DNA of 64,000 nucleotides from Minisyncoccia bacterium (GCA_038228545.1 JBBRPE010000001.1:46924-110923), one strand, 5' to 3'. Shown: positions 10,588 to 50,142, counted from the stretch's first letter. A program made the numbers and translations. Notes: generated from the sequence alone by a model not told the origin.

Positions 10588-11622
10588 TTACCAGGAAAGC
10601 TGACCGCCGGTCTTGTATTCGGTCACGCGTGTCTCAAAGAAGTTCTTCTCCTTATTGAGGTCAACGGCCTCGCTCATCCAGGGGAATGGATTGGCAACGT
10701 TGTATTGCGCTGGAAGTCCCACGCTCGCAAGACGACGGTCAGCAATGTGCTCGATGTATTGCTTGAAGCCGTCTGCGTTCATACCGAAGATTCCCTTTGG
10801 GAAAACTTCCGTAGCAAAGGTGTATTCGAGGACGACAGCACGCTTCACAAGGTCTACCATGCGCTGCTGGAATTCTGGGGTCCACAGCTCAGGCTGTTCC
10901 TCCTTTATGGAGTTAATCATGTTCACACCGAAGTTCAGGTGCTGCGACTCGTCGCGCATAATGTACTGAATTTGTTCTGCAGAACCAGTGAGCTTGTTCT
11001 GACGTTGGAAGCCGAACATAACAGCGAATGATGAATAGAAGAAAATACCTTCCATGATGAGCGAGAACACTATGAGGTTCTCCAGGAAGAGTTGGTCATT
11101 CTCAAATGTTCCGGTCTTAAACGCCGGGTCGAAGATTCCTTCGTTCAAGTTAAGGACGAGATTGTCCTTGTTGTAGATACTTTCTACCTCACGATACATA
11201 TTAAAGATACGACTCTCGTCCATGCCAAGCGATTCCACAATGTACTGGTACGCATGCGTATGGATAGCTTCCTCGTAGCCCTGACGAAGAAGGTACATGC
11301 GGCACTCGGGAGAAGTAACGTGCTTGTACACCGCAAGCACGACATTGTTTGCGGCAATGGAGTCTGCAGTCGTAAAGAAACCAAGAACAGTCTCGAACGC
11401 CTGACGCTCGTCTGCAGTCAGAGCAGTCTGACTCTTCCACTGCTCGATGTCGCGCTGCATCGAAATCTCCGTTGGAAGCCAGTGATTACTATTACCTGCC
11501 ATGTATGCCTCCCACGCAAATTTATGACGCATTGGATAGAGCTGCATCACATCGGCATCCCCACCGTTAATTATCTTTCGGTTGTTAACGTTGACGGGTG
11601 CTGCACCGTGGTTGATAGGCAT
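10588..11622 (-). CDS. nrdB: ribonucleoside-diphosphate reductase class I beta subunit
   Basis: Ferritin-like di-iron motifs EEAIHTHAY and IMEGIFFYSSF. Located downstream of nrdA. Confidence 0.9.
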   Translation of the reverse strand: MPINHGAAPVNVNNRKIINGGDADVMQLYPMRHKFAWEAYMAGNSNHWLPTEISMQRDIEQWKSQTALTADERQAFETVLGFFTTADSIAANNVVLAVYKHVTSPECRMYLLRQGYEEAIHTHAYQYIVESLGMDESRIFNMYREVESIYNKDNLVLNLNEGIFDPAFKTGTFENDQLFLENLIVFSLIMEGIFFYSSFAVMFGFQRQNKLTGSAEQIQYIMRDESQHLNFGVNMINSIKEEQPELWTPEFQQRMVDLVKRAVVLEYTFATEVFPKGIFGMNADGFKQYIEHIADRRLASVGLPAQYNVANPFPWMSEAVDLNKEKNFFETRVTEYKTGGQLSW

Positions 11623-11766
11623 ACGAGGTAGTTTGAATTAATAATCCGGGTTCGAGGTCTCCGACTTAGGTCGTACCATTTTCGCCTTCTTCCCCGCTCT
11701 TAGCAACTTTTGAGATAATCAGAGACGGCCTAGATTTGTGACTTATCCACACTTCGCCAATAAATC

Positions 11767-11790
11767 AAAACCCCTCGCCAGAGGGGTTTT
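11767..11790. terminator. hairpin (aaaacccctc-gcca-gaggggtttt) between nrdA and nrdB; possible attenuator or bidirectional terminator
   Basis: Perfect 10-bp stem flanked by A-run and T-run. Confidence 0.45.
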
Positions 11791-11816
11791 GATTTCGTTT
11801 TCATGTCCTCACGACT

Positions 11817-11903
11817 TCAGATACTAGGCGCGAGGAGTTCGCGCGAGAAGACGTACTAGCAGTACGTTGACGAGCGAGAACGAACTCGCAACAACGTAGA
11901 TGG
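11817..11903 (+). repeat. 88-nt structured interspersed element, copy A
   Basis: tcagatactaggcgcgagg...agacgtactagcagtacg...ctcgcaacaacgtagatgg. See finding. Confidence 0.75.
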
Positions 11904-11917
11904 TGTCGTTTTACGAG

Positions 11918-19423: not shown

Positions 19424-20197
19424 TTACTTCTTAAGTCCTGAACCGCGAATGAAGAGGAAAAGAGTGAGCAGGAAGAACAGAACCGTAAGTCCACCCATAA
19501 CGGCGAAACAGACCGCGATAGAAACGTCCGTAACGCCGAGGAAGCCGTAGCGGAACGCATTCACCATATACAGGATAGGGTTGAAGAGCGACAGAGTTCG
19601 GAAAAACGGCGGGAGCTGATTCACCGAGTAGAAGACGCCACCGAGATACGTAAGCGGCGTAAGCACGAACGTCGGGACGATGGAAATGGCGTCGAAGGAC
19701 TTCGCGAAGATACCGTTCACCAGTCCGGCGAACGCGAACAGGAGCGTGGTGAGTATTGCGGCACCCAGAACCACAACGATGTTAGCGATTGCCAAATGGG
19801 TAAAGAAGAGTGACGTCGCAACGACGAGCACGCCCACGAGCGTACCGCGCATCACGCCACCCGTCACAAAGCCTGCGATAATGGCCCACATTGGCATAGG
19901 TGAGACGAGTTGCTCGTCTATCGTGCGCTGCCATTTCGCGAAGTAGAAGGTCGAGACGGTATTCATGTAGGAACTCGTAATAATGGACATCATCACGATA
20001 CCCGGCACGATGAACGAGATGTAGGACAAGCCGTTTACCGCACGCACCTGACTGCCGATGAACGTGCCGAAGATGGCGAAGTAGAGTGAGGTCGTAATGA
20101 CTGGCGGAAGAAGCGTCTGACTCCAGATACGAATGATGCGGAAGAAGTCCTTGCGGACCATCGTGTAGTAACCGATGAGGATAGGGTTTTTGGTCAT
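19424..20197 (-). CDS. ABC-2 type exporter permease
   Basis: Six-TM ABC-2 fold. Confidence 0.8.
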   Translation of the reverse strand: MTKNPILIGYYTMVRKDFFRIIRIWSQTLLPPVITTSLYFAIFGTFIGSQVRAVNGLSYISFIVPGIVMMSIITSSYMNTVSTFYFAKWQRTIDEQLVSPMPMWAIIAGFVTGGVMRGTLVGVLVVATSLFFTHLAIANIVVVLGAAILTTLLFAFAGLVNGIFAKSFDAISIVPTFVLTPLTYLGGVFYSVNQLPPFFRTLSLFNPILYMVNAFRYGFLGVTDVSIAVCFAVMGGLTVLFFLLTLFLFIRGSGLKK

Positions 20198-32578: not shown

Positions 32579-33157
32579 ATGCGTGAGATTACTTTTGACA
32601 TCGAAACGCGGAACCTAATCCCCACCATGGGTCGTGGAGATATGACGCGTCTCGATTTAGCTATCGTCGCCATTCATGATTCTGAGACCGGAGAATATTC
32701 TTCCTATTCGCAAGAAGAACTTCCGAAGCTCTGGCCTATTATCGAGCAAGCAGACGTTCTCATTGGCTTCAACTCAGACTCGTTCGACATTCCTCTTTTA
32801 AATCATTACTACCCGGGCGATCTTACTCAGATTCGTTCGCTCGATTTACTCTCCGAAGTATATACAGCGCTCGGCCGACGCCTACGTTTGCAAAACCTCG
32901 CCGAAGCAACACTGGGCCATGGTAAATCCGCAGATGGTATTCAGTCCGTAAAGTGGTGGCAGGAAGGCCTGCACGATAAGGTTCGCGAGTACTGCATCCA
33001 GGATGTGAAAGTGACACGCGATATCTACGACTACGCACTTGAGCATGGCAAACTGAAATATAAGGACCTTCGCACGCTCAAAGAGATTAAGATTGATACG
33101 AGCAATTGGAAGACAGGCAGCGACCCGTCCGCCTTCACTCATACACTAGGGTTGTAA
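32579..33157 (+). CDS. DEDD-family 3'-5' exonuclease (RNase D/DnaQ-like fold)
   Basis: ITFDIETRNL (Exo I), LIGFNSDSFDIPLL (Exo II), YCIQDVKVTRDIY (Exo III). The track ORF start at 32495 reads through element C. Confidence 0.65.
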   Translation: MREITFDIETRNLIPTMGRGDMTRLDLAIVAIHDSETGEYSSYSQEELPKLWPIIEQADVLIGFNSDSFDIPLLNHYYPGDLTQIRSLDLLSEVYTALGRRLRLQNLAEATLGHGKSADGIQSVKWWQEGLHDKVREYCIQDVKVTRDIYDYALEHGKLKYKDLRTLKEIKIDTSNWKTGSDPSAFTHTLGL

Positions 33158-33246
33158 ACCCTGACCGGTTGTATTTTAGAAATATAGGCATAGGATTGGC
33201 TACTGGCGCACGGGTTGTTCGTGCACTGATCTTCGGGAGGACTACC

Positions 33247-33582
33247 ATGGCCACGCTTGGGATTACTATCCATGTTCCAATTGAAATCGAACCCGCAGTC
33301 CGGCGTCTCTGCCGGACTGCGGTGCACAAGCAGATTGCGCACTATCTGAAGCGCAGCGGCGCCAAGCACGAGCTCACGGTGGAGGCCCAGCCCAAAGAGG
33401 GCGGCAAAAACTACATCATCGCCGTGCTCGAGCTACCCTACATGCCCAACTGGGAAGACATCCCGGACATCGTGGGGTCGGTGCTCTCACATCTCATGAA
33501 CGGCGAATTCAACGTCGAGGTGCGAGACGCTCGCTCGGAGCAAACGCTCCCCTACACCCGAATCGACCTTAAGGCGGCCTAG
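33247..33582 (+). CDS. hypothetical protein, GC3-rich ORFan (~60% GC)
   Basis: gggagg RBS 7 nt upstream of the ATG. Composition is atypical for this genome. Confidence 0.45.
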   Translation: MATLGITIHVPIEIEPAVRRLCRTAVHKQIAHYLKRSGAKHELTVEAQPKEGGKNYIIAVLELPYMPNWEDIPDIVGSVLSHLMNGEFNVEVRDARSEQTLPYTRIDLKAA

Positions 33583-35097: not shown

Positions 35098-35331
35098 TCA
35101 ATCGTCATTCTCGCCCACCTCTTGGAAGTGGAAAGCGAGAATGCCATGGAAGTTCCCTTCGTCTCGCTCGAGATGGTCCATGACCCACTCCACGAGTTGC
35201 ACGCCCCCCGCAGTCTTAGCAGACTTTAGGAGCTCGTCGCGCTCCGGAACAGTCGTATGGCCGTCGGTCCGCAGCTGACTCGCCAGCTTTCTGTAATTGA
35301 CGAGCTCGGTAAACGAATCCTGCTTTCCCAT
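35098..35331 (-). CDS. hypothetical small acidic protein
   Basis: 77-aa ORF. An AT-rich promoter region lies upstream. Confidence 0.35.
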   Translation of the reverse strand: MGKQDSFTELVNYRKLASQLRTDGHTTVPERDELLKSAKTAGGVQLVEWVMDHLERDEGNFHGILAFHFQEVGENDD

Positions 35332-35419
35332 TGAAACCTCCTCTGTTTGGGTAGCATGTAACTATAGCACAGTATAAATATTTTGTCTATATTCTACGTT
35401 ATGTGAGACGTGGGAGATA

Positions 35420-35448
35420 TTGACAATATCCATATTTCAGGCTATTAT
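35420..35448 (+). promoter_or_regulatory. near-consensus sigma70-type promoter: TTGACA, 17-nt spacer, TATTAT
   Basis: ttgaca-atatccatatttcaggc-tattat, then an aagg RBS and the ATG at 35463. Confidence 0.5.
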
Positions 35449-35462
35449 ATATCTAAGGCCCT

Positions 35463-35999
35463 ATGACGGCTGCGTTCCAATTCCAGAGAGGGATATATCC
35501 AATGTTCGAGCGTCTCATGAATGCCATCACTGGCTTCAGCGTCGACGACTACACCGAGTATGATGTCTCCGTCGGTCTCTTCAAAAATGCCGACGAAGTC
35601 ATCGCGGGTTTCGCCAGGCACACACACGTGGTGGGTGCGTCAGCAGAACGGACGTTCAGAAGTCCTGAGTTCGTCTACTCCGAGCCCACAGACATCAAGC
35701 TCGTCTGTGTCACTCCCCGCCAGCTCGGCCTCAAGGCCGAATGCCAGCCGTGGGTGGTGCTCGCGAACGCCGTGAAGCAGGGTCTTGCACCCTGCCCGGA
35801 CGATGCCGCCGCCTGCATGATGATGCGCTGGGGTCTCTCGAGCCAGGGCCACCTCTTCGCCGTCCGGCACATCCAGAAAAAGATGTCCGGATGCTGGTTC
35901 ATGCAGACCAACATCGACCTCGGCTCGAGCGCGCTCGGTCTCTGGCATGGCCAGAGAGGGATTCCACTCGACAAGCTGATTTTCTTCCGTAAGCCCTAG
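35463..35999 (+). CDS. hypothetical protein, GC3-rich ORFan (island gene 1)
   Basis: 178 aa, ~60% GC, no recognisable family. Has its own promoter and terminator. Confidence 0.5.
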   Translation: MTAAFQFQRGIYPMFERLMNAITGFSVDDYTEYDVSVGLFKNADEVIAGFARHTHVVGASAERTFRSPEFVYSEPTDIKLVCVTPRQLGLKAECQPWVVLANAVKQGLAPCPDDAAACMMMRWGLSSQGHLFAVRHIQKKMSGCWFMQTNIDLGSSALGLWHGQRGIPLDKLIFFRKP

Positions 36000-36023
36000 T
36001 CGGCATTCGGACGAATCAGACAC

Positions 36024-36058
36024 CGCCCGGCCATTTCTGGCCGGGCGGATTCTTTTTA
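36024..36058 (+). terminator. intrinsic terminator for the 35463 gene
   Basis: ccgcccggcc-atttct-ggccgggcgg followed by attctttttata. Confidence 0.65.
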
Positions 36059-36067
36059 TACAAAGTG

Positions 36068-36110
36068 CAAAATATAAAAAATAGGCGCGCCGTATTCGGG
36101 CGCGCCTAGT
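36068..36110 (-). terminator. intrinsic terminator for the minus-strand DGQHR gene
   Basis: aggcgcgcc-gtattcg-ggcgcgcct, preceded on the plus strand by aaaatataaaaaat, which is a T-run on the minus strand. Confidence 0.6.
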
Positions 36111-36246
36111 ATAGGTACTCTAACGGAGTTTAGCTTTGGCCTGTTCGACCAGTTCCTCTCCGCGGGCGATGTTGTTCCGGACTTTTTTAAGCAGTTTCTG
36201 GGCTTCCTGCTTCAGACGGTCTTTGCCGTCAGTCCGGTAGGTGGGC

Positions 36247-37383
36247 TTAGCTCGCGATAGACGCCGGCGCTTCATCCTCGTCCTCCCCTTCATCAGAGGC
36301 GACGGCGGTGAAGCGGGAGAGGCGGTTTTCGACGCGCTTGCCGGAGTTGATGTGGTCGATCATCATCTCGGCCAGGGTGAACCAGGCCTTGCCGGACTGG
36401 CCCCCGAGGCGCATGACCTCGGGATCGTTGACCGGGAAGGTGGTGATCTTCTTGATCATCGGCCTGTTGACGCAGAGCTTTTGACCGTCCCAGAAGTCCT
36501 TGTGCTCGACGAGGACGTAGGCGAAGGCGCGCAGGAACGTGGTCCGCATGCAGGTCGCGCCAGACTTGAACGTGCGCCGACGGATGTTGAAGCACTCGTC
36601 GATGACATTGAAGAATGTACGGACGTTGCCCGTGAAGCGCCCCTTCTCCATCGTCGCCTGCGTCTTGTCGAGCGCGCTGACCAGCTGGTCGAACACCGTC
36701 GAGCGGCCGGGGCCGAACCGGGCGTTGATGAACCCGGCCGCCTTCAGTAGCAAGTTGGCGGTGATCAGCTGGTTTCCGGCCATCCGCTGTTGCCAGCAGA
36801 CGCGGCCGAACATCGGCGAGGTGCGTTCTTCTTCCGAGAAGGCATAGAGTTCGCCGATGGCGGGGCTCTTGTCCCTCATGTTGCGGAACAGAACGTTCGT
36901 CGACAGTTTGGTGCGGTAGAGATTGAGGGCCTTGAAGCGCTCGCTCTCCCACTCCTCGGTGGTGCTGAGATGGATCAGGCACCCCAAACGGGGGGACCGG
37001 CCCTTCTCGACGACCACCTTGCCGGCGGTGACCCGTTGCAGGCCGTCGATGATGTAGGTCGCGTCGCGCAGGTTGACGGTGCCGTCGGCGCACGTGTCGA
37101 AGTTATCGCCACGCATGCCGAGTTCGATGTCGGGCAGCACCTCGCCAGCCTCCATGACGGAGGTCAGCTCATTGATCTTCGACTCCGGCAGGATTTCCCG
37201 CTGGTAGCCGGCGACCATCAGATGCTGGAAGGATTTCGGATCGACCACCCCGCGAAGGATGATTTTGCCGTTGTCCCACGTGTCGAGCGAGACGGCGATG
37301 ATGTGAACGATCTGATTTTCGTTGGGCATGTGCCCCTCCTTGTTCTTACCTTGAGTAGCGTGTTGCTCCCAATAGGCGAACAT
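36247..37383 (-). CDS. DndB-like DGQHR / DUF262-type ParB-fold protein (island gene 2)
   Basis: AGYQRE ... VLPDIELGMRG ... YIIDGLQRVTAG follows the Y-QR / P-I-L-R / DGQ(H/Q)R motif series of DndB/DUF262. ~62% GC against a ~50% background. Confidence 0.6.
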   Translation of the reverse strand: MFAYWEQHATQGKNKEGHMPNENQIVHIIAVSLDTWDNGKIILRGVVDPKSFQHLMVAGYQREILPESKINELTSVMEAGEVLPDIELGMRGDNFDTCADGTVNLRDATYIIDGLQRVTAGKVVVEKGRSPRLGCLIHLSTTEEWESERFKALNLYRTKLSTNVLFRNMRDKSPAIGELYAFSEEERTSPMFGRVCWQQRMAGNQLITANLLLKAAGFINARFGPGRSTVFDQLVSALDKTQATMEKGRFTGNVRTFFNVIDECFNIRRRTFKSGATCMRTTFLRAFAYVLVEHKDFWDGQKLCVNRPMIKKITTFPVNDPEVMRLGGQSGKAWFTLAEMMIDHINSGKRVENRLSRFTAVASDEGEDEDEAPASIAS

Positions 37384-37386
37384 ACT

Positions 37387-37415
37387 TATATAACATGGAA
37401 CGTTACATAAGTCAA
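37387..37415 (-). promoter_or_regulatory. sigma70-like promoter (TTGACT-17-TATATA) placing the +1 site at or near the ATG: leaderless DGQHR transcript
   Basis: Minus strand ttgact-tatgtaacgttccatgt-tatata-agt-ATG. The -35 element overlaps the helicase stop codon. Confidence 0.4.
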
Positions 37416-40249
37416 TACTTAAAAAGTTTCAGCAGGTCGTCGTACGCGTCAGCGTCGTCTCGCTTTCGTTCCCCCTTGCGCCAAGTACCGCCAACGAGCT
37501 CACCAATGACACTCTCGAGCGTAGACAGTAGTTCTTCGCGTGTTTCATTTGTAAGCGGCACATCATAGTCTTTTACTTCTTCAGTCGTCACCTGCACGAT
37601 AGTCGCCTTTGCTGGCTTGTGGCCATTCTCACGAAGGAGTAGTTCATAAAACGCCAGCTGACGCGGATAGCTTTCGTCTTTCTGGTCTATTTTGCTCGAC
37701 GTCTTGAAGTCGACGATTTCTTCACCGAGAGGCGTTTTGAACACAGCATCTATTTTGCCGTATAGCAGGACTTGGGTTCCGGCGAATTCTTTTGTTACGG
37801 AAAAGGCTTTTTCTACTGCCTCATGCTCTTTAGTAGGAGCGTTCTGAATGAAAGTCATGACGCGTGCGCGAGCATCTTCACATGCGTTGTCATACGCCTT
37901 CGTGCGTTGCAGAAGTGAACGTCTCAAACATACTTCCAGTGCATCGTACGCGCGTCCTTCGTCCTTTGTTTCAAGATATTCAGCAATGCCTGCGTGCACC
38001 GCGCTACCAATAAGCGTCGCGGTTGTTTCCGAATCATGAAGGCGTAGCACGCGTCGTGCAAAGAAGACGGGAGGTGATTCTATATATTCGTTGAGCGCCG
38101 AAGGCGACAAACCTTCTTCAGTGAGGTATCGAAGTACGAGTGCAGTGACAGTCTTAGGAGCATCCACCGTCGTGTGCAGGAGCGGTAGTGGGTCGGCTTC
38201 TGGAGTGATGTTTTCAAGACCTTCAGGTATGAGTGCGGACGGTGGTAAGTCACGCCCTTCTCCGGATTCAAGTGCGTACGAAAGCACGAGCTCATTCTTT
38301 GCGCGCGTTATAGCAACGTAGAAAAGCTTTATAGCGTCTTCTGCAGTACGTGTCTGGTCGACGGGCGATGGAATAGTCGCACCACGACCTCCCTTCTCCC
38401 ACTGGCGAGCGTTGAGGCCGACAACAAATACTCGCTCGAATTCCATACCCTTTGCTTTGTGTGCGGTTATCACCGTGACCAGCCCTTCCTGTTGCGTGGC
38501 AGAAGACTTTACGCTTTCAAGGCCGTGCTCATGCGCCTGCACGAATGACGTCACTACCTCACGGAAGGTTCGGGAGGGGTCGCGTGCCACAATCTCCTCG
38601 ACGTGCATAAAAATCTTGCGCAGGAGTGTGATGTCTTCTAGGTGTTCACCGTGCGAAAGAAAGTAGCCGCGCGCTCCAGTGTCTGCAAGCATACGCGAAA
38701 GTAGAGCGAGAGGTGATTCATCGAGAGCAGCTTTCTGGAGTGCTTCTATGCATGAGGCAATCTGTGGGTAGGTAGTACGAAGTGCATTCCATAATTCCCG
38801 GTCGCGATTTTTAAGGAGCATCTCACTTCGCTCGCTAAGTGACATGTCCCACCACGGTGCAAGTAAAGTCTCGCGGAGAGCCGCGATGTCGAGCGGGTCG
38901 GCTACAGAGCGCATAAGCGCGAGCACCGAGCGCATGAGTGGGCGTGAGGAAAGCATCACGTCACCTGCACGGAGCACCGGAATATTCCGAGCGGCCAAAT
39001 GTTCTGCGAAAAGGTCGGCCGTTCCGTTCCGGCTTGAAATTATTGCTATTTCTTCCGGCTTTGTTCCTTCTGCTATCGCAGTCTCTATCATCTGCGCTAC
39101 CTGGTCGCGCTCTGCGAGCGGGTCAGCTGCAGCAAGGAGTTTTAGGCTCGCCACTCCCGAGCGCGTAGCCACAAGCTTCATATGTTTTCCTGCAGCTGCA
39201 GGCACCGCTTCTATGACGCCATGCGAAATATCGAGTACGTCTTGGAGCGAGCGGTAACTGTCCGTAAGTTGAATGAGTTCCGTACGTGGGAAGTGCTCAG
39301 TAAAGGTTTTGAAGTGTGAAGAGTCAGCCCCTTGGAAGCGATAAATAGCCTGCTTCTCGTCGCCCACAACGAAAATATTTGGGTGCTCGTCATATGCAAG
39401 CGTATCGAGAAGAGCGTGCTGGAGAGCATTCGCGTCCTGATGCTCGTCTGCAAGAATATATTGATACTGCTCCTGTACCATAGCGCGGAGGTCGGCATCC
39501 TGCTTCAGTCCTTCGACAGCTATGTTGAGCACGTCCGCAAAGTCATACACATCGCGCGCATCTTTCAGAGCTTCATACGCTTCAATAAGTCGTGCCGCCT
39601 CGGCAATTTTCTCGAGACGCTCAAGCTTACCGAACCCTTCCGGTTTCATCTCACCTTTCTTTCCATACTTACTGTCGCGAGAGTAGTAGAGCGACTCATC
39701 CGCCCGTATGCGTTCTCCTTCCGTCTCTGCCCATGCTCGATACATATCGAGTGTTATCTGCTCGCGAAGCAAGTCATCGCGAAGCCGAGCAAGGTCACGC
39801 AAATAAAAATACGGAGACTTCGGCGTGCGTAGATGCACCAGGTCCTGCGTCTCGAGTATCTCTCTCCAGAGAAGCGTCGTTTCTACGTCGCCAGCAAGTC
39901 GCTTTCCACGAGACGCTTTAAACGAGTCGGGATACGTAGTGAGAAGATTCTCGGCGAAGCCATGGAAGGTCGAGATGAATACTTCGCGGGAGGGCGCTTC
40001 GCCAATGAGCCCTGCGAGGCGTTTACGTACCGTCCGTGCCGCGGACTCCGTAAACGTAAGCACCAGGATATTGGTCGCGTTCGCCTGGGTCGTTTTAAGG
40101 ATGTTCGCTATGCGAAGGGTGAGAATATGCGTCTTCCCCGTCCCTGGGCCAGCAATGACCAAAACTGGCCCCTCAACGGTATCTACAGCCTTCTTCTGGG
40201 CTGGATTCAGCTTTGCATAGGCCTCCTTAAATGCCTTCTCGTCGGTCAT
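37412..40249 (-). CDS. UvrD/PcrA-family helicase with C-terminal PD-(D/E)xK (RecB/AddA-like) nuclease domain
   Basis: Walker A AGPGTGKTH, helicase motifs, and C-terminal GKIDAVF...IVDFKTS. Confidence 0.85.
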   Translation of the reverse strand: MTDEKAFKEAYAKLNPAQKKAVDTVEGPVLVIAGPGTGKTHILTLRIANILKTTQANATNILVLTFTESAARTVRKRLAGLIGEAPSREVFISTFHGFAENLLTTYPDSFKASRGKRLAGDVETTLLWREILETQDLVHLRTPKSPYFYLRDLARLRDDLLREQITLDMYRAWAETEGERIRADESLYYSRDSKYGKKGEMKPEGFGKLERLEKIAEAARLIEAYEALKDARDVYDFADVLNIAVEGLKQDADLRAMVQEQYQYILADEHQDANALQHALLDTLAYDEHPNIFVVGDEKQAIYRFQGADSSHFKTFTEHFPRTELIQLTDSYRSLQDVLDISHGVIEAVPAAAGKHMKLVATRSGVASLKLLAAADPLAERDQVAQMIETAIAEGTKPEEIAIISSRNGTADLFAEHLAARNIPVLRAGDVMLSSRPLMRSVLALMRSVADPLDIAALRETLLAPWWDMSLSERSEMLLKNRDRELWNALRTTYPQIASCIEALQKAALDESPLALLSRMLADTGARGYFLSHGEHLEDITLLRKIFMHVEEIVARDPSRTFREVVTSFVQAHEHGLESVKSSATQQEGLVTVITAHKAKGMEFERVFVVGLNARQWEKGGRGATIPSPVDQTRTAEDAIKLFYVAITRAKNELVLSYALESGEGRDLPPSALIPEGLENITPEADPLPLLHTTVDAPKTVTALVLRYLTEEGLSPSALNEYIESPPVFFARRVLRLHDSETTATLIGSAVHAGIAEYLETKDEGRAYDALEVCLRRSLLQRTKAYDNACEDARARVMTFIQNAPTKEHEAVEKAFSVTKEFAGTQVLLYGKIDAVFKTPLGEEIVDFKTSSKIDQKDESYPRQLAFYELLLRENGHKPAKATIVQVTTEEVKDYDVPLTNETREELLSTLESVIGELVGGTWRKGERKRDDADAYDDLLKLFKY

Positions 40250-40708: not shown

Positions 40709-43702
40709 TTACATCCGAGTTAGGAGTTCTATTAGCTGCGCGCGTTGCTGAATAATTTTAGCATCCGTCTGTGACCATATAAGTTTCTCAAGTGCAATAA
40801 TATACGGTTTTGCTAGTGCAATTATTATCTGCCTCTTCTCTATTTCCTGAAGGGTAAGAAGGAGCAAGGCCTTAATTATAGGAGAGACGGGGAGCGCATT
40901 TATCTTCAACCTCAGTTGCACAATAAGCTGGAATGTAGTTTGCGGTGTAGTGGTCGCCGTACTGCTTGCCGTAAAGTCCACAGTTCCATTCCCATCTTTA
41001 TCGACCAACGGATTCATGGCCACGCCTGATGTATTAACAGTAAATGTCGCAGTTGTTCCTGTCTGCGTATTTATGCCCCCAAACCGTTGCAGGGTCGTTA
41101 TACTCCCATCTTGGTTCAATGGACCGACCTCAAGCGTGGTAGTTCCCGACCCATATCCCGTTGCCTGGACTGATACGCTGACACCCTTAGGTATATACAA
41201 GTACTTCTCGTCGTCATACGAATCCGCATAGCTACCAGGGATATCTTCTACCATTCGGTAGAATTCTGTTGTTCCAGGTATTGAAACAAATCCAGTTTGA
41301 TTTCCCAGGTTATCGGTCGCGACGATATTAACAGGAGAATGTGCGCTAATTGTATACATTAGAGGATTCAATCCCGGAGTAGGTTTAACTGTCTGAATAT
41401 AGGACGATAGGATATCACTTCTTCCAAGTAGCATAGATATCTCATTTTCAACCGGTAGTGCTGAAAGTAGGCTTTGATGCACCACGTTTACATGCCTATC
41501 ACGAAGATAATCCTTTGCATTGAAGAAAAGGGTGTTGGAGGAATTCTGTATGGAGCTTGGGGTAACGACTGTGTCATCACCATCTTCCGTTGTGCTCGCA
41601 ATATGTTGATAATTTATATCGAAGCCGCAAGTAAACCCGAGTACTCCTCCTGAATCGCAATGGAATTGCCCGTTTGTCGTCGTGTACAAGTAGTTCACAG
41701 GAGTTGGCTGACCCCAGCCTGAAAGGCTTATGATCGTAGTGCTTGCCGTGGGGGCCCATGTGTCGAGCTTCGCATGGGTAGTCGCCTCTTTACTAAGTAT
41801 CGTGGCTGAAAGTTTCATTGGCACTTTCAAGTCTGATGTGGAGAGCGTGCTATGGATACCAAGTTTATCTGTGAGGAAATCGACCATTTCTTGATAGGAA
41901 TTTATGCCGTCTGCACCAAATTCAGTCCCATACGGATTTGTAGAATCAGTCGTGGAGAACATTGCAACCGGCGTTGTCACATGACTGAAATACGCTGGCG
42001 ACGGAAGCAAACCGTACATACCAGGCATAGTTGCTGCAACGGCACGCACCGTACCGGAGTACGTTACGATTCCGAGCATGTTTGTCAGGTCGTCACCGTG
42101 AAGCATTTGACCTACAGCTTTTGGCGTCCCAAGCTGTGGAGTGCCTACAAGAACAATCTTGTCCACCAAATTGCTTCTTCCCTCTGCCTCGAGCCTAAGC
42201 ATGAGTGCTTTTGCCAATAGACCACCATTACTGTGAGCAATTATCGTGACCTTGCCCGTTGCAGAACTTGAAGCGAGAGTAGAAACATCCTGATCCAAGT
42301 AATCTCTGGTGTCGTCCTCCCGAAGAACTCCATTCGCAACAATATCAGTGACGTCATATCGCCAGTCATACGGATACGCATACCACCTATTGATGAGCGG
42401 CTGTGTGGAAGTGGCAGTCGAGGAAGCTATCGAGTCCATGTAGGAGATGAACGAATCGTATACGTGGACAGTGTTGAATATTGAACCGATTATCGATCCG
42501 ACATATATATTCGGCTGACTGTTTCCGCTCGCGTCTAAGGCGAGTCCGCCTAGATTCGAATTAAAGATTTGCGAGCCCCACAGGACGGTCTTCGTACCAT
42601 TCGCATTTTTTCGTATGAGCTCGCTAGTGAGGGTTCCGGGAAGAAATAAGACATTCGATCCCGTGGACCCTACTTGCGGCGTTAAGGTGGGGTTTGTAGG
42701 AGCAATAATGTCACACGACGCCGCGTCATAGCAAATGGCGAACGCAGGAATATTGTTTGTGTCGGCTATTGCACTCGATGTTCCAGTATTACTGAGCGCT
42801 CCCCATTGCCACGGGTCACCTTTGTTCGGGTCAATATGAAATTGCTGCATACAGCCTCCCACACTAGTACTGTGAGCTTTCGCAAATCCATCAGGTCGCA
42901 CATCATATCCTGAGTACGCTCCCGGTATAAAGGCATTGATGTGATAGTTAGAACTTGGACAACCCGTTAACCCTTCGAAGAAAACGACTGCGTAATAATC
43001 TCCTGCCGGCAACGAGTTCAGAAGAGAATGCTGAATTGCTATGCCATCAGGTATTCCACCACTTACATAATTTGGTGCCGTGACGATACTCCCACCGATG
43101 GCGTGATCGAGCACAACACCAGTCGGTGGACCTGGTGGCGTTGTAGTACCGGTGTACGAGATACCCGTAAGATTGAAGCCTAAGTCGCCAAGGCCCACAA
43201 CAGTCGCAGTTCCAGACGCGTAGGTATCATTCGCGGAACCATACGGAAGCATCGCGCCCGCCCCATTATTTACGGAGATGCCTGTATGTATGAGGTAGTA
43301 CTTGTTTGGATCCAACTGGTAACCACCTGGAATTGAATACGTAACAGTAGTGTCAGTGTCCACTCCTACTGCGCCAACAGGATTCAATGAAAGTGCTAAA
43401 GTCCCGGTTGTTAGAACACGAACGCACTGTACGTAATTTGCATCATCGCAAGCATCAATTCCGAAGTAGATGTTCGGACCATAATACGGTGAACGATTGA
43501 AACGTATTTGAAAAACCGCTTGCGTGAGATTTCCGCTTATTCCTGTACCCAACTGTTGCGCCCAGTCGCCACTCGTAGAAAGTGGTCCAGGGACGAGCGT
43601 ATCGTAAACAGATTGGATAATATCTGCATGAGCGGGCAGTGGAGAAAAAGCCCCGAATGCGGCGAGGACGGATAGGGCGCCCATGGTGGCGAGACGGCGC
43701 AT
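40709..43702 (-). CDS. large secreted protein with LCAT/PGAP1-like alpha/beta-hydrolase (lipase/acyltransferase) domain
   Basis: Real start MRRLATMGALSVLAAFGAFSPLPAHA (signal peptide) with an aggag RBS. YAYPYDWRYD (LCAT DWR motif) and IIAHSNGGLL nucleophile elbow. The upstream 207 codons of the track ORF were rejected. Confidence 0.65.
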   Translation of the reverse strand: MRRLATMGALSVLAAFGAFSPLPAHADIIQSVYDTLVPGPLSTSGDWAQQLGTGISGNLTQAVFQIRFNRSPYYGPNIYFGIDACDDANYVQCVRVLTTGTLALSLNPVGAVGVDTDTTVTYSIPGGYQLDPNKYYLIHTGISVNNGAGAMLPYGSANDTYASGTATVVGLGDLGFNLTGISYTGTTTPPGPPTGVVLDHAIGGSIVTAPNYVSGGIPDGIAIQHSLLNSLPAGDYYAVVFFEGLTGCPSSNYHINAFIPGAYSGYDVRPDGFAKAHSTSVGGCMQQFHIDPNKGDPWQWGALSNTGTSSAIADTNNIPAFAICYDAASCDIIAPTNPTLTPQVGSTGSNVLFLPGTLTSELIRKNANGTKTVLWGSQIFNSNLGGLALDASGNSQPNIYVGSIIGSIFNTVHVYDSFISYMDSIASSTATSTQPLINRWYAYPYDWRYDVTDIVANGVLREDDTRDYLDQDVSTLASSSATGKVTIIAHSNGGLLAKALMLRLEAEGRSNLVDKIVLVGTPQLGTPKAVGQMLHGDDLTNMLGIVTYSGTVRAVAATMPGMYGLLPSPAYFSHVTTPVAMFSTTDSTNPYGTEFGADGINSYQEMVDFLTDKLGIHSTLSTSDLKVPMKLSATILSKEATTHAKLDTWAPTASTTIISLSGWGQPTPVNYLYTTTNGQFHCDSGGVLGFTCGFDINYQHIASTTEDGDDTVVTPSSIQNSSNTLFFNAKDYLRDRHVNVVHQSLLSALPVENEISMLLGRSDILSSYIQTVKPTPGLNPLMYTISAHSPVNIVATDNLGNQTGFVSIPGTTEFYRMVEDIPGSYADSYDDEKYLYIPKGVSVSVQATGYGSGTTTLEVGPLNQDGSITTLQRFGGINTQTGTTATFTVNTSGVAMNPLVDKDGNGTVDFTASSTATTTPQTTFQLIVQLRLKINALPVSPIIKALLLLTLQEIEKRQIIIALAKPYIIALEKLIWSQTDAKIIQQRAQLIELLTRM

Positions 43703-43987
43703 ACCCCTGTACTCCTGAAGCGTACCACTGGCAGTACATGGTGCAAGCAAGACCGATGTGCGTATACTGGGATAAGTACCACTCCCAAAGCGCTGCGGTA
43801 GACGCGAGTATGGGAAGCGAGGTTGACCACGTGGAAGGATCTTTGCAACTGAGCCGTTGTCTGTGGCCACGGATTGTAACAGCTCTGCGTAGAGCAAAGC
43901 GGCAGCATTGGTGACATGGGTCACCCGCGAGACCGAAGTGCACCGAAGTATCCTCTTAGACCAACGCGACTCGCTACGATTAAAGAA

Positions 43988-44022
43988 GGCCGCCCCAACC
44001 CCGGGGCGGCCATTTCTTTTAT
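43988..44022. terminator. bidirectional intrinsic terminator
   Basis: ggccgcccc-aacccc-ggggcggcc followed by atttctttt. Confidence 0.6.
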
Positions 44023-44045
44023 CCTCGACAAATAGGACCAAAAGC

Positions 44046-44609
44046 TCAGAACACGTAGCTACGTTTGAGTTTAATGCGAAGCTTCTTATGTTCAGGAATA
44101 ACACTCCCAACGAGCGCCCAGAACTTTGCAGAGTGGTTGTGATGCACGGTGTGTGCAAGCTCGTGGACCACCAGATAATCGGTGAGCTCACTCGGCAAAT
44201 GCACGATGCGATAATTAAAAGAAAGATTTCCCTTCTGGGAACAGCTTCCCCATCGACTTTTCTGATTCCGTATTGAAATGCTCCCGTGAGTGAATCCGTG
44301 CGCGGTAGAGAAGTGACGTACACGCTCGATCACAAGCGTACGAGCAGATTTCTGTGCCTCTATGTATGCCTTTGACCCGCGACGCAGTCGCGGGAGCTGT
44401 TCTTTCGGATTCTTCGCCTCCCGTTCTGCACGCTTTTGAAATTTCTTCACTGCGGCTTCTATCCACAGCGATTTTGTCCGTACGAATCGCTCAACTGCCG
44501 CGGTGCTCACAAAGCGTGGCTTCGTAACAACAACTCGTCCGTCCGTATGAATAGTTATCCGCGCGCTAAGCGCCCGTGCGGATTCCTTAATTTCGTAAGT
44601 GTACGCCAC
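44046..44609 (-). CDS. YgjP-like (DUF45/M48-type) zinc metallohydrolase
   Basis: VVHELAHTVHHNHSAKFW. Confidence 0.75.
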   Translation of the reverse strand: MAYTYEIKESARALSARITIHTDGRVVVTKPRFVSTAAVERFVRTKSLWIEAAVKKFQKRAEREAKNPKEQLPRLRRGSKAYIEAQKSARTLVIERVRHFSTAHGFTHGSISIRNQKSRWGSCSQKGNLSFNYRIVHLPSELTDYLVVHELAHTVHHNHSAKFWALVGSVIPEHKKLRIKLKRSYVF

Positions 44610-44684
44610 TCAGCCAGTCTACCCGAGCTTGAGCGTATTGACCTTGTTCCACATCAGCACGAATAATTCGATATACTGAACAAT

Positions 44685-45143
44685 ATGGAAAAGAGGTATT
44701 GGCTCGTAAAGTCTGAGCCCGAGAGCTACGGCATCAAGCATCTGAAAAAAGACAAAAAGACACTGTGGACCGGTGTTCGCAATTACACCGCCCGAAACTT
44801 CATGCAAAGCATGAACCCGAACGACGAAGTCCTGTTCTACCATTCTTCCTGTGCTGTTCCCGGTGTGTACGGCATAGCAAAGGTTGCTTCGTCGCCGTAC
44901 CCGGACGAGACGCAATATGACGAGAAAGGTCATTACTTTGAAAAGCGAGCAACGAAGGAGAAACCGGTCTGGTACCTGGTGGATATAACGTTTGTATCAG
45001 AATGCAAAAAACCCGTCACACTTCCGCAGATACGAGCAACCAAAGCGCTCGCCGGTATGAAAATACTCGAGCCAGGCTCGCGACTATCTGTCACGCCAGT
45101 GACAACTAATGAGTTCGAAATAATTTCAAAGCTTGCCGCCTAA
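44685..45143 (+). CDS. EVE (PUA-like) domain protein
   Basis: YWLVKSEPESY...WTGVRNYTARNFM...DEVLFYHS. Confidence 0.8.
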   Translation: MEKRYWLVKSEPESYGIKHLKKDKKTLWTGVRNYTARNFMQSMNPNDEVLFYHSSCAVPGVYGIAKVASSPYPDETQYDEKGHYFEKRATKEKPVWYLVDITFVSECKKPVTLPQIRATKALAGMKILEPGSRLSVTPVTTNEFEIISKLAA

Positions 45144-45231
45144 CTTGCTATATATAATAAGCGTGGTACTATTCTTTCGAACTGTCAGGAGCACTGCTCC
45201 CCTTCATAAACGCAAACCGAGAGGTACTATC

Positions 45232-45666
45232 ATGATTTCTGTCAGCGCCGCCATTCCCGGACTGTATGCCGACGATCGAGTTCCCCAAGATCCCATCACC
45301 GGCCGCTGGGGTGTGAGCATGCGCGAAACCGAGCTGCATGCGGCCCTGAAGCGCGCTGTGTTCGTGCACTGCATGAACACGAAGGTGGGCATCACTGAGG
45401 ATTTCATCCTCGTCGAGGTCCACCACGTACATGTGGGCAATGCGATGCGGATGACCATCACCGTGGCCGACGACATCGTGGAAGCAGATAAGCCGTGGCG
45501 GCAGAATCTCGCCCGTGCGACCACCATCGCGCTCCAGAAGTTCGCGCCGCCCGAAGGCTCCGACGACGTCGCGATCCAATTCATTCAGAGCATCGACGAC
45601 CACTTCTTCTTCGGCAAGAGCATGGGCGAAGAAAAGCCGCCGGTCAAAAGGACCCGGGCAGCCTAA
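45232..45666 (+). CDS. hypothetical protein, GC3-rich ORFan
   Basis: gagagg RBS. ~60% GC. Confidence 0.4.
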   Translation: MISVSAAIPGLYADDRVPQDPITGRWGVSMRETELHAALKRAVFVHCMNTKVGITEDFILVEVHHVHVGNAMRMTITVADDIVEADKPWRQNLARATTIALQKFAPPEGSDDVAIQFIQSIDDHFFFGKSMGEEKPPVKRTRAA

Positions 45667-45709
45667 AGCGTCCGCACGCATCCACTACTCCTCGCCACAA
45701 GCGAAGAAA

Positions 45710-45738
45710 GGGCGTCCGTAATCCGGACGCCCTTTTGC
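45710..45738 (+). terminator. intrinsic terminator
   Basis: gggcgtccg-taat-ccggacgccc followed by ttttgc. Confidence 0.6.
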
Positions 45739-45800
45739 TATATAAAGTGACAAAGTACACTTTCATGCTATAGTCCACACGGGTAACCAGGGAGGATCCC

Positions 45801-46433
45801 ATGTCAGACACCGATGTGTCGTATGAAAAAATAGACGCGCTGAACCTAGCGGGCGCCGCCCGTTACGCTCAGCTCGTTGCGTCGGGACGTGGCGACTTGC
45901 CTCATCCGGTCGAAGATCTTGAGCTGTTCAGTCGCACCGCCACCGACAGGAATATGTTGGACATTGGTTGCGGCTGGGGACACTACGTTCACAAGTTCAT
46001 CAAAGCAGGTTTCAGCTACGTCGGCGTGGACTCCTCACCGGAGATGCTGCAGGAAGCGCGTAAGCGCAATCCGGACGAACATTTCTACGAGGCCAGCTAT
46101 CTGAATCTCGAAGGCACATTCGCGCCGAATCGCTTCGATGCCATTTGGTCCTGCTGTGCTTTCGGCGGCGAGCCCAAGGCCCGCATGCCGCAGGCGCTTG
46201 CACAGCTCCGGCGCGTGCTCCTTCCCGGCGGCGTTATGGTCATCGTTCTCGCCAACAACGAAAACAGTGAGGAGTGTCTCGCTGAAGGCGCTCACGGCGA
46301 GATGTACTACACGGAGTGGTTTGCGGACGAGTTCAAGCAGACGCTCCAGCACGCCAATTTCGTCGTCGAAAAAGCCTTCAAACGTTTCCGGCACGGTTCG
46401 ATGACCTTCATCGCTCGCAAACCTCCGGACTAG
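45801..46433 (+). CDS. class I SAM-dependent methyltransferase (Methyltransf_11-like)
   Basis: LDIGCGWGHY motif I. Confidence 0.8.
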   Translation: MSDTDVSYEKIDALNLAGAARYAQLVASGRGDLPHPVEDLELFSRTATDRNMLDIGCGWGHYVHKFIKAGFSYVGVDSSPEMLQEARKRNPDEHFYEASYLNLEGTFAPNRFDAIWSCCAFGGEPKARMPQALAQLRRVLLPGGVMVIVLANNENSEECLAEGAHGEMYYTEWFADEFKQTLQHANFVVEKAFKRFRHGSMTFIARKPPD

Positions 46434-49614: not shown

Positions 49615-50142
49615 ATGAGCTATGGAGAATACGAAGCTGCCAAGAAGCGGCTTTGGAACGACCTACTCCTCAAAACCTACGGCACGACCGACCTGCGCGA
49701 CCAGGAGCACATGCAGCCCGATCCCGAGGCGCACGCATTCTTCGCAATCGTCGATGCGGCATTCACGCCGTGCGACAAGATGCAGGGCTGCGTTCCCGTC
49801 TCGCGTGAGCTGGTGCAATACTTGGCTGGATGGGCTCGCGACTTCTCTCGAGGCTGGGAGCAGCGCGGCGGCCCATTCGATACGCCTCGTCACAACCACT
49901 TTGTCAGCCGCGCATTCAACGGCTTCTACGAGACTCTGACGAGGGCCGTGAAGCACGGCGAGCTCCGCGACTACGGCCAAGACCGCACCATGTACGGCGG
50001 TCTGACGCTTCCCCAGTGGTTCATCAGCCAATGCATTGATGAGCTCCACGAAGAAGCTCTGCACTGCAACAAGCTGTGGGATGAGAGCGAGAATTGGCAC
50101 GAAACACTTCGCGCGCCCACCTCAACCTCCTTCCTCGAATAA
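49615..50142 (+). CDS. hypothetical protein, GC3-rich ORFan
   Basis: aaagga RBS. ~60% GC. No recognisable family. Confidence 0.45.
   Translation: MSYGEYEAAKKRLWNDLLLKTYGTTDLRDQEHMQPDPEAHAFFAIVDAAFTPCDKMQGCVPVSRELVQYLAGWARDFSRGWEQRGGPFDTPRHNHFVSRAFNGFYETLTRAVKHGELRDYGQDRTMYGGLTLPQWFISQCIDELHEEALHCNKLWDESENWHETLRAPTSTSFLE

Follow-up and report, generated by a model that had tools for sequence, protein, structure and literature searches.

This report concerns a small operon on the minus strand of a 64,000-nucleotide (nt) stretch of DNA from a Minisyncoccia bacterium (GCA_038228545.1, JBBRPE010000001.1:46924-110923; the whole stretch is referred to below as the window). The operon, which is the core of the finding, consists of a promoter, a structured 5' leader, a gene that we call G2, a gene for a basic protein of 51 amino acids (aa), and a terminator. 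G2 defines an undescribed, compact protein family within the DUF262/DndB-like branch of the ParB/Srx fold, and family members are found both in genomes of the candidate phyla radiation (CPR, or Patescibacteria) and in phage contigs. The phage gene is an ordinary, composition-matched member of a replication/recombination module, and the CPR gene is functional and exists as anciently diverged alleles that have been exchanged between lineages at a fixed locus. The overall explanation that we favor, and to which we give about an even chance of being correct, is that G2 is a phage-derived conflict gene that acts on DNA in a manner dependent on nucleoside triphosphates (NTPs).

An initial annotation of this region had described a recently acquired, compositionally foreign island of two convergent genes, G2 and an open reading frame (ORF) called gene 1, abutting a helicase-nuclease gene. 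Parts of that description hold and others do not, and they are taken up below with the results that bear on them.

The G2 operon

The elements of the operon are listed here in the order of transcription, with positions counted from the first nucleotide of the window.

37387..37415, minus strand: sigma-70-type promoter of the G2 operon, with the -35 element TTGACT at 37415..37410, a 17-nt spacer, and the -10 element TATATA at 37392..37387
37342..37381, minus strand: leader hairpin (type 3), 40 nt, GUUCGCC..UUGGGAGC-AACAC-GCUACUCAAGGUAAGAAC
37335..37341, minus strand: ribosome-binding site AAGGAGG, 5 nt upstream of the G2 start codon
36247..37329, minus strand: G2, 360 aa; N-domain DUF262-like and of the ParB/Srx fold, C-domain all-helical, tail acidic
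36120..36275, minus strand: small partner ORF, 51 aa (57 aa from ATG 36293), between G2 and the terminator
36072..36108, minus strand: intrinsic terminator of the G2/small-ORF operon, GGCGCGCC-loop-GGCGCGCC and then a T-run (36108-36082 in the scan)

The G2 promoter was correctly recognized in the initial annotation, including the overlap of its -35 element with the stop codon of the helicase gene (37414..37412). It was read from the sequence; the simple promoter scan missed it because the -10 rule of that scan demands a final T. The coding sequence was previously thought to run from ATG 37383 to 36247, giving a 378-aa protein made from a leaderless transcript. The ORF is indeed present, but neither that size nor that start stands. 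ATG 37383 is located at the predicted transcription start, 2 nt before the conserved leader hairpin, and the real start is ATG 37329, with AAGGAGG 5 nt upstream and an mRNA leader of about 50 nt. Homologues (340-390 aa) align from position 37329, an identical database protein (P0001) is 360 aa long, and a GGAGG-type site precedes the aligned start in nearly all G2 homologues.

The leader hairpin begins at about the predicted transcription start and contains 15 base pairs, with a folding energy of -11.9 kcal/mol (z = -2.7). When five orthologues of this type-3 leader are aligned, 92% of the cells are paired and 4 pairs show compensatory changes, compared to 45% paired in slid controls; the cores of this and the other leaders were delimited partly by eye, and all leader statistics are indicative only. 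The promoter and leader are ~96% identical between L102 and L105 (L-numbers are the labels of the compared loci, which come from CPR genomes and viral contigs).

The gene for the small protein was not part of the two-gene description, and with the conserved 51-aa ORF that follows G2 before the terminator the island is more than simply two genes. The small ORF lies in the +1 frame across the acidic tail of G2 and has its own GGAGG. Its product has a basic N-terminus and a helical core with the pattern LLKKxRNNIxxxxxLxxxAKxxL. The region 36247-36293 is dual-coding: one stretch of nucleotides yields DEGEDEDE at the acidic end of G2 and, for the small protein, the basic N-terminal residues MKRRRLSR. 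In the +1 frame, the GA-rich codons of the G2 tail become the Shine-Dalgarno (SD) sequence of the small ORF and the residues MKGRTRMKRRR. The dual-coding arrangement recurs in L002, L102, L103 and L105, and an equivalent terminator follows the small ORF in these four loci and in L106. In the window, the scan found the back-to-back terminators that had been described between the convergent genes, at 36023-36048 (plus strand) and 36108-36082 (minus strand).

Two pairs of inverted repeats were also seen inside the G2/small-ORF operon. One is a perfect 14-mer, ACGTGCGCCGACGG, at 36570-36583 and 37082-37095, and the other is a 28-nt pair with 75% identity at 36142-36169 and 36668-36695. The arms of both pairs are exactly 498 nt apart. 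By a rough estimate, a perfect 14-nt inverted repeat within 3 kb is unexpected.

Fold and family membership of the G2 protein

The AlphaFold2 (AF2) model of G2 has a mean confidence (pLDDT) of 91.9, and its structural matches place the protein in the ParB/Srx fold superfamily. The motifs on which the initial annotation had relied (Y-QR, PDIELGMRG and IDGLQR) are all present and are invariant across the family; in G2 they correspond to Y42-Q43-R44, P66-D-I-E-L-G-M-R-G74 and D95-G-L-Q-R99, and are followed by N136. Among 120 aligned sequences, the invariant residues are Y42-Q43-R44, D67, G71, R73-G74, D95-G96, Q98-R99, E128, F132 and N136, and, in the C-terminal part, W179, Q181, N235, F279-W280 and H326. 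The equivalents of the Box I, II and III pocket motifs (Q43-R44, D95-G96-x-Q98-R99 and N136) are thus among the invariant positions, and NTP binding by this pocket is a prediction. In profile-profile alignment with hhalign, the G2 motifs coincide with QPR and DGFHR in phage ParB-like proteins.

The motif-based guess was right about the fold and the branch, but every formal family threshold failed. The proposed DUF262 affinity holds to the extent that 32 of 50 family members give collinear, sub-threshold matches to PF03235, in which family residues ~35-190 align with profile positions 12-151; at 12-21 bits (best 21.5), however, none reaches the gathering cut-off of 33.2. Membership in the DndB/DGQHR family did not survive. 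Models from Pfam, NCBIfam and PADLOC all stay below threshold, and at E<=1 the window protein has no match at all; the Pfam DndB model (PF14072) matches only 2 of the 50 members weakly (best E 0.035), and neither TIGR03187, TIGR03233 nor any other NCBIfam model matches G2 at E<=1. The ParBc model PF02195 likewise finds neither the window protein nor any of the 50 members at E<=1, and a profile search of PDB sequences with 120 family sequences gave 0 matches at E<=10. A single weak match was found in PHROGs, to the ParB-like phrog_1033 (E 6e-4). Among predicted viral structures, the top full-length matches to G2 are uncharacterised phage proteins (TM-score 0.5-0.6), followed by proteins annotated as DNA-sulfur-modification-associated, GmrSD N-terminal domain, DUF262 or ParB/Srx. 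Stand-alone DUF262/DndB-like phage proteins reach TM-scores of up to 0.58-0.61 over their full length.

The C-domain is all-helical, and in fold searches it has no nuclease match and is not similar to helix-turn-helix (HTH) domains. The C-terminal sequence DHINSGKR was considered as a possible His-Me finger and rejected: it terminates a helix, and the all-alpha domain in which it lies matches no nuclease fold.

An exhaustive profile search recovered 533 clusters (at 50% identity) with E<=1e-3, of which 362 have E<=1e-30. Members of this small, sharply delimited family are uniformly 340-390 aa long and share a single architecture, with no fusions in this search. In a collection of 5.8 billion proteins there are 437 relatives of G2, all of them unnamed and without Pfam domains; those with a named source are assigned to Saccharimonadales, Paceibacterota/Pacebacteria, or simply "bacterium". 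The known partners of DndB-like and DUF262 proteins are missing, as had been noted, with no Dnd, Ssp, Dpd or DUF1524 gene within +/-10 kb of G2. Nor is there any dnd, ssp or dpd gene in the window or among the neighbours of ~90 loci (a comparison that covers linked copies only), and no ParA-like gene is a conserved neighbour among the compared CPR and viral loci.

G2 in CPR genomes and in phages

A scan of species-representative genomes found 50 loci with G2, most of them in records titled Patescibacteria or CPR and several with generic ("bacterium") or other names. The family-bearing metagenome-assembled genomes with other taxon names are L023, L038 and L040 (Gammaproteobacteria), L026 (Nanoarchaeia) and L043 (Terracidiphilus); the flanks of G2 in L023 are low in GC (0.385), with SecA as a neighbour. 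Mis-binning or mis-labelling of these records is a possibility. In CPR loci, G2 stands alone among housekeeping genes, for example between MurJ and LepA or near IleRS, SecA, GyrB, TopA or PilB, and has no conserved neighbour.

The setting of the viral copies is quite different from this solitary one. A scan of IMG/VR found 43 viral loci in which G2 lies inside dense, co-directional arrays of replication/recombination genes, with neighbours that include PD-(D/E)xK nucleases, a RecD2-like helicase, a DnaG-type primase, ERF, RusA, GcrA, MT-A70 and phrog_1033 ParB-like proteins. In viral group A, a phrog_1033-type gene lies directly upstream of G2 and a PD-(D/E)xK nuclease gene comes after it. In L085 and L093, the gene immediately downstream of G2 encodes an MT-A70 methylase, and three further viral loci have such a gene nearby. 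A tblastn search with G2 found no match among cultured phages (INPHARED) or plasmids (PLSDB). Viral and CPR sequences interleave in a neighbor-joining tree.

The methylase neighbours raise the question of whether G2 could be an accessory loader or activator of a DNA-modifying enzyme encoded elsewhere, like DndB, DpdB or 5mYOX-ParB, with the CPR copies being parts of dispersed modification systems. The DUF262/DndB-like affinity of the protein points in the same direction as the viral MT-A70 genes, and the literature offers precedents: phage ParB proteins activate DNA-modifying enzymes (PMC13229309), and ParB-methyltransferase fusions are enriched in prophages (PMC12704722). However, none of the CPR loci has a modification enzyme linked to G2, nor is there one within +/-10 kb of it in the window, and the precise replacement of the coding sequence described below would not be expected for a housekeeping-type accessory factor. 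We consider this explanation quite improbable.

The GC excess of the CPR copies

The claim that this segment is a compositional outlier is well founded, since it has the highest GC content (guanine plus cytosine) of the whole window. Measured over 1-kb intervals, GC content peaks at 0.626 at position 36251, against a mean of 0.514 (standard deviation 0.031) across the 64 kb; over 2-kb intervals, the peak is 0.591 at 35501. The GC content of third codon positions (GC3) averages 0.557 (standard deviation 0.10) over 61 non-overlapping ORFs of the window. G2, with a GC3 of 0.87-0.88 and a coding-sequence GC of 0.618, is the top outlier among these 61 and is the only one with GC3 above 0.8. For gene 1, which had been described in the same terms, GC3 is raised (0.76) but not exceptional, being similar to that of about five other ORFs. 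Raised values (0.69-0.75) occur elsewhere in the window in the ORFs at 19424-20197, 45133-45666, 45801-46433, 49615-50142 and 33106-33582, and the genome thus has some compositional heterogeneity beyond the G2 locus.

The GC excess of G2 is a family trait, but in CPR genomes only. In 45 CPR loci, the GC content of G2 is 0.576 compared to 0.479 in the flanks, an excess of 9.7 points (Wilcoxon p = 8.5e-9) that reaches 23.6 points in the extreme case and ends at the gene borders. In 34 viral loci, the corresponding values are 0.572 and 0.570 (r = 0.885), so that the CPR copies carry the ~57% GC of the viral pool. The correlation extends to the low-GC viral contig L061, with 0.425 in G2 and 0.434 in the flanks. 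Because viral G2 follows the GC content of its genome even when this is low, high GC is not required by the protein or the mRNA.

Age of the locus and replacement of alleles

The G2 locus is ancestral and predates the split from L105, contrary to the idea of a recent foreign island. G2 occupies the same site in L105, L106 and L102, and synonymous sites in the flanks are saturated between the window and L105. The gene order in L105 is that of the window (helicase, G2, small ORF, p77, p182, DsbA, RNase H-like, HisRS), with protein identities of 79% for HisRS, 80% for the RNase H-like protein, 70% for the DsbA-like protein, 72% for p182 and 53.5% for the helicase; L106 and L102 have the helicase-G2-small ORF part in common with the window. 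The divergence of G2 at four-fold sites between the window and L105 (0.56 observed, 0.53 expected) equals the compositional expectation.

Comparison of L102 with L105 shows that the coding sequence of G2 has a history of its own. The two loci are ~90% identical at the 3' end of the helicase gene and ~96-97% identical through the promoter, leader, ribosome-binding site and first 13 nt of the coding sequence. Identity then falls abruptly to 61-76% at the nucleotide level (58% at the amino-acid level) over the whole G2 coding sequence, and returns to 89-93% from the last ~20 nt of the coding sequence through the small ORF and the terminator. Furthermore, the L102 G2 protein is 71% identical to that of the window and 58% identical to that of L105, which is opposite to the relationship of the flanks. 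This conflict between allele and flank relationships argues for import rather than evolution in place. A second CPR case is provided by L017, L024 and L035, where identity is 88-95% in the downstream flank and 67-80% in G2. The viral groups differ from this, with G2 conserved at least as well as its flanks. That G2 is a functional gene follows from the purifying selection seen between close alleles (dN/dS 0.11, L002 vs L103).

These results bear on the possibility that the GC richness of G2 is intrinsic, resulting from selection on the mRNA or DNA, or from GC-biased gene conversion at a hot spot, in a vertically inherited gene. The GC3 of G2 is 0.88-0.92 in all four syntenic genomes (the window, L105, L106 and L102) despite the saturated flanks, and the gene is demonstrably a recombination hot spot, both of which would fit. 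On the other hand, viral copies take the GC content of their genome, down to 0.425 in L061, and the phylogeny of the alleles contradicts that of the flanks, making this alternative decidedly unlikely in our view.

Leaders and partner proteins in other CPR clades

The structured leader is not restricted to the close relatives of the window. CPR copies of G2 have structured leaders just upstream of the ribosome-binding site, in clade-specific versions. RNAalifold detected no structure in the raw MAFFT alignment of the 83-nt upstream regions; structure appeared only after trimming to the core. The type-1 leader has the form GGGUUGCUAUCCC-loop-GGGAGCUUAACCC; its two helices covary and its internal loops (GCUA/GCUUA) are conserved. 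As far as the empty Rfam search of the window shows, this motif has no Rfam entry. In the model built from 16 sequences, 92% of cells are paired compared to 80% after shuffling, with 0 of 500 shuffles reaching the observed value, and four pairs have compensatory changes. Searching 1.57 Mb with the type-1 covariance model gave 20 matches at E<0.2, all of them 20-70 nt upstream of G2 starts, and five of these are in loci outside the model-building set; there is no match in the window or in viral loci. The second leader type has the form CUCGGACAUAAG-hairpin-ACUGCUCCGAG, followed by CCCAACC..AGGAG, and in type 2a the outer helix covaries (95% paired, two compensatory pairs). The loci are as follows.

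Type-1 leader: L032, L039, L041, L051, L037, L038, L014, L009, L008, L010, L006, L024, L035, L030, L042, L016
Further type-1 leaders: L029:146-175, L056:9932-9980, L052:9861-9890, L015:9878-9919, L055:7380-7411
Second leader type, ~40-80 nt upstream of G2: L013, L022, L028, L033, L036, L040, L019
Variants of the second leader type: L021, L025, L026, L046

Conservation of the small basic protein at the amino-acid level extends to 14 loci from two clades; its ORF always comes directly after G2, and six-frame translations of all the compared loci contain no homologue elsewhere. In L108-L110, a homologue of the small protein follows a different, phrog_1033-type ParB-like protein (280 aa, with a DGRHR motif), which points to a functional link of the peptide to ParB-fold proteins generally. 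In L108 (1117-2167), the 280-aa gene has a GC3 of 0.87, the small-protein homologue behind it is 49 aa long, and two small genes come before; the 280-aa protein has a sub-threshold match to Bacterial Death-like domain 2 (E 0.0056).

In another CPR clade, G2 is translationally coupled, through overlapping stop and start codons, to a protein of ~250 aa whose gene is GC-rich compared to the flanks. One member (L037) has a weak, sub-threshold N-terminal match to HTH_3 (E 0.0027), and in L052 (9911-11518) G2 and the ~250-aa partner form a single 535-aa ORF. The downstream gene in the five loci listed here was considered as a tandem paralogue of G2, an interpretation that was rejected in favor of an unrelated, HTH-like partner.

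L037:11047-11739, ~250-aa coupled gene
L039:11083-11859, ~250-aa coupled gene
L041:7035-7775, ~250-aa coupled gene
L042:11071-11973, ~250-aa coupled gene
L051:11014-11745, ~250-aa coupled gene

G2 and the small basic protein could also form a toxin-antitoxin or addiction pair. According to such a model, G2 would be a DNA-damaging or DNA-clamping toxin, the translationally coupled small peptide would neutralise it via the acidic tail, and the leader hairpin or an operator would provide autoregulation. The bicistronic overlap, present here and in 13 other loci, is what one might expect from such a pair, and the SD sequence of the peptide gene lies inside the G2 tail; the module is also mobile and patchy with swapped alleles, and the same peptide family is found behind a second, unrelated ParB-like gene. 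There is a precedent as well, in that a preprint reports a ParB-CTPase fold repurposed as an ATPase toxin (bioRxiv 10.64898/2026.05.05.722872). The model has difficulty, however, with the lack of the peptide in most family members, including all viral loci and L107, and with the behavior of G2 in phages, where it belongs to the conserved core of the replication module. In addition, neither protein matches a toxin or antitoxin family, and we regard a toxin-antitoxin role as quite unlikely.

A model for G2 function

How might a gene that belongs to replication modules in phages come to stand alone in CPR chromosomes? In the explanation that we favor, G2 is probably an NTP-gated switch that binds or tracks DNA via its ParB-fold N-domain. 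This proposal is based on sequence motifs and analogy: NTP-gated engagement of DNA is suggested by the invariance of the pocket motifs ([FY]QR, DGxQR and N...L) and by the resemblance to ParB, DUF262 and DndB. ParB-type folds of this kind are reported to bind CTP, ATP or GTP, and orphan versions are said to be common on mobile elements (PMC12704722). The helical C-domain and acidic tail probably engage variable partners, which would be the small basic peptide here, the HTH protein in the other clade and, in phages, an MT-A70 methylase or a PD-(D/E)xK nuclease. The CPR copy is a solitary accessory gene that keeps the GC content of the viral pool, and its coding sequence has been replaced repeatedly, between the conserved leader and the conserved 3' end, by anciently diverged alleles. 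Such a picture is typical of genes engaged in virus-host conflict and suggests a phage-derived gene that is retained by the cell for exclusion or defence, or else a selfish passenger. A role in virus-host conflict is proposed because of the phage home of the family, its solitary accessory status, the swapping of alleles and the lack of amelioration.

Several observations weigh against this explanation. A characterised phage ParB activator tolerated mutation of the residues equivalent to those of the predicted NTP pocket (PMC13229309). The neighbours of G2 in CPR genomes are housekeeping genes rather than defence islands, and PADLOC-DB v2 gave 0 matches at E<=1 for G2 (as for gene 1, p77 and p182). 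Only ~14 of 55 CPR loci have the small partner, viral loci lack it altogether, and it is missing even from L107, which belongs to the same clade; G2 must therefore work alone or with unlinked partners. The GcrA neighbours suggest that the viral loci belong to alphaproteobacterial phages, which leaves a direct phage-to-CPR route uncertain. Finally, the GC3 excess lasts at a locus that is syntenic between genomes with saturated flanks, and selection or biased gene conversion could be its cause instead of viral origin.

A more specific version of the conflict model is that CPR bacteria keep G2, a domesticated gene of a phage replication module, as a single-gene immunity or exclusion factor that is renewed by allele swapping. 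As a DUF262-like switch, the protein could be dominant-negative or serve as a decoy and so poison the corresponding machinery of the phage, and cassettes consisting of only the coding sequence would arrive from the GC-richer viral pool between the structured leader and the 3' small ORF. We consider this version rather unlikely. If true, it would represent a new kind of defence locus with a built-in allele-swapping architecture, in a phylum known for few recognisable defence systems.

Whatever the function of G2, the family (~530 clusters) is unannotated, having been missed by Pfam, NCBIfam, PADLOC and PF02195-based surveys of ParB-CTPases, and it links CPR chromosomes with uncultured phages. 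The alleles provide a clean natural case in which replacement affects nothing but the coding sequence and the breakpoints fall at its start and stop codons; mechanisms of gene flow in these organisms are poorly known. With a GC content ~10 points above the genome in dozens of CPR lineages (here 35 GC3 points), G2 is a marker for virus-to-CPR gene flow, and the restriction of the excess to CPR is a compositional puzzle. New regulatory parts are provided by the clade-specific leaders and by the tiny basic protein, whose gene overlaps the codons for the acidic tail of G2. The annotation of the window should also be corrected, such that neither the ORFan (gene 1) nor the helicase gene is grouped with G2 and G2 is not described as leaderless.

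Gene 1, the helicase and other neighbours

The genes on either side of the G2 operon are listed here.

35098..35389, minus strand: 77-aa gene (p77), coding sequence 35098-35331, promoter TAGACA-17-TATAGT at 35389..35361
35395..36060, plus strand: gene 1 cassette, with promoter 35420-35448, coding sequence 35463-35999 and terminator 36023-36048
37412..40249, minus strand: UvrD-type helicase and PD-(D/E)xK nuclease in one fusion protein, 945 aa, a syntenic neighbour only

Much of what had been described for gene 1 is accurate. The ORF of 178 aa (35463-35999, plus strand) is present, its promoter (TTGACA-17-TATTAT at 35420-35448) agrees with consensus at 11 of 12 positions, and it belongs to no known family, with no homologue among 5.8 billion proteins. 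Pfam, NCBIfam and PADLOC have no match to it at E<=1. Six-frame translations of ~100 related loci also contain no homologue, and single-sequence AF2 predicts no fold (pLDDT 30). The GC content at its three codon positions (0.58/0.43/0.77) is of the coding type, which suggests that the gene is really coding.

The proposed pairing with G2 is a different matter: in a check named beforehand, gene 1 and G2 were never found together elsewhere. In L105 gene 1 is absent, and the G2 terminator and the conserved p77 promoter follow each other within ~20 nt; in L106 the site is occupied by a different convergent ORFan, of 68 aa (L106:3836-4042). By its absence from the syntenic site of L105, gene 1 alone looks recently acquired. 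In L002, the G2 operon is followed by a 178-aa gene (11490-12026) that shares the strand of G2 and so is not convergent. The genes that come after the G2 operon in L002, L106 and the window are unrelated to each other, as if this position were a small, variable hot spot where ORFan cassettes land. Gene 1 is a self-contained, lineage-specific ORFan cassette, a neighbour rather than a functional part of the G2 module. The p77 gene (GC3 0.69) lies beside the G2 operon also in L105, with 55% identity.

The domains assigned to the helicase-nuclease (UvrD and PD-(D/E)xK) were confirmed, but the partnership with G2 was not. The gene adjoins G2 in four syntenic relatives only (the window, L102, L105 and L106); over ~85 other loci, a UvrD-like gene is within 10 kb in 2 and adjacent in none. 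It has ordinary composition (GC3 0.53) and is separated from G2 by the promoter of G2, and in PADLOC it has generic matches to GajB and other UvrD-type models, with no GajA partner. The helicase-nuclease is a chance syntenic neighbour.

Taken as a whole, the proposal of a recent two-gene island, in which a DGQHR/DUF262 protein and the ORFan and/or the helicase-nuclease form a defence or modification module, had some basis: gene 1 and G2 are adjacent and both GC3-rich, G2 adjoins the UvrD/PD-(D/E)xK protein in four genomes, and a PD-(D/E)xK nuclease gene follows G2 in viral group A. Nevertheless, gene 1 has no homologue and is absent from L105 or replaced in L106, the adjacency of the compositionally ordinary helicase gene is shared synteny with the G2 promoter in between, and the locus is ancestral rather than recent. 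We judge this proposal to be very unlikely.

Other features of the window

Rfam and tRNA scans of the window found nothing, which leaves it without a tRNA-linked integration site or a known riboswitch. Among the direct and inverted repeats that surround the island there are no convincing ends of the kind expected for attachment (att) sites or transposons.

About 7 kb from G2 (44046-46433) there is a three-gene cluster that may be related to nucleic-acid modification, with an ORF of unassigned function and high GC3 (45133-45666) within it. The EVE domain is a PUA-like domain that is thought to read modified bases. The long ORF listed first starts with GTG as given, and its first ~200 residues look non-coding; its true start is probably further downstream.

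40709-44323, minus strand: 1204-aa ORF with an LCAT-like lipase/acyltransferase domain (residues 648-919)
44046-44609, minus strand: YgjP-like metallopeptidase
44685-45143, plus strand: EVE-domain protein
45801-46433, plus strand: S-adenosylmethionine (SAM) methyltransferase, with a PADLOC mad2 match (2.4e-18)

Comparison with known systems

G2 resembles DUF262/GmrSD_N proteins (PF03235, with GmrS and the N-domains of BrxU and SspE). Both have a ParB/Srx NTPase-type domain with a helical extension, and both have the motif series [FY]QR, DGxQR and a third motif N...L; the DUF262 version of the second motif is DGQQR. Unlike GmrSD, BrxU and SspE, G2 has no DUF1524/HNH (His-Me finger) nuclease domain, nor a neighbour with one in the window. 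The family also differs from DUF262 in its own invariant PD[IV]ELGMRG motif, its own C-terminal helical domain and its solo architecture.

DndB/DGQHR proteins are ~360 aa long. They and DpdB resemble G2 in size and in the combination of a ParB-fold N-domain with a helical C-domain. However, the G2 motif is DGLQR rather than DGQHR, and there are no linked dnd, ssp or dpd genes.

Orphan ParB-CTPase-fold proteins (PMC12704722, Kaljevic et al. 2025) are, like G2, orphan, linked to mobile elements and rapidly diversifying. In contrast to the PF02195 orphans and to PadC/KorB, G2 lacks a ParBc signal, an HTH DNA-binding domain, ParA and parS-like repeats, and its Box I reads QR where the canonical ParB-type motif is QxR. 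Because G2 has no PF02195 signal, a survey based on that model would miss it.

The phage ParB associated with 5mYOX (PMC13229309) belongs to another sequence family, and G2 has no linked 5mYOX or hypermodification genes and is solitary in CPR genomes. The two are nonetheless alike in being phage-encoded ParB-fold proteins without an obvious DNA-binding domain, and just as the 5mYOX-associated ParB acts with a cognate partner, G2 adjoins MT-A70 or PD-(D/E)xK genes in some phage loci.

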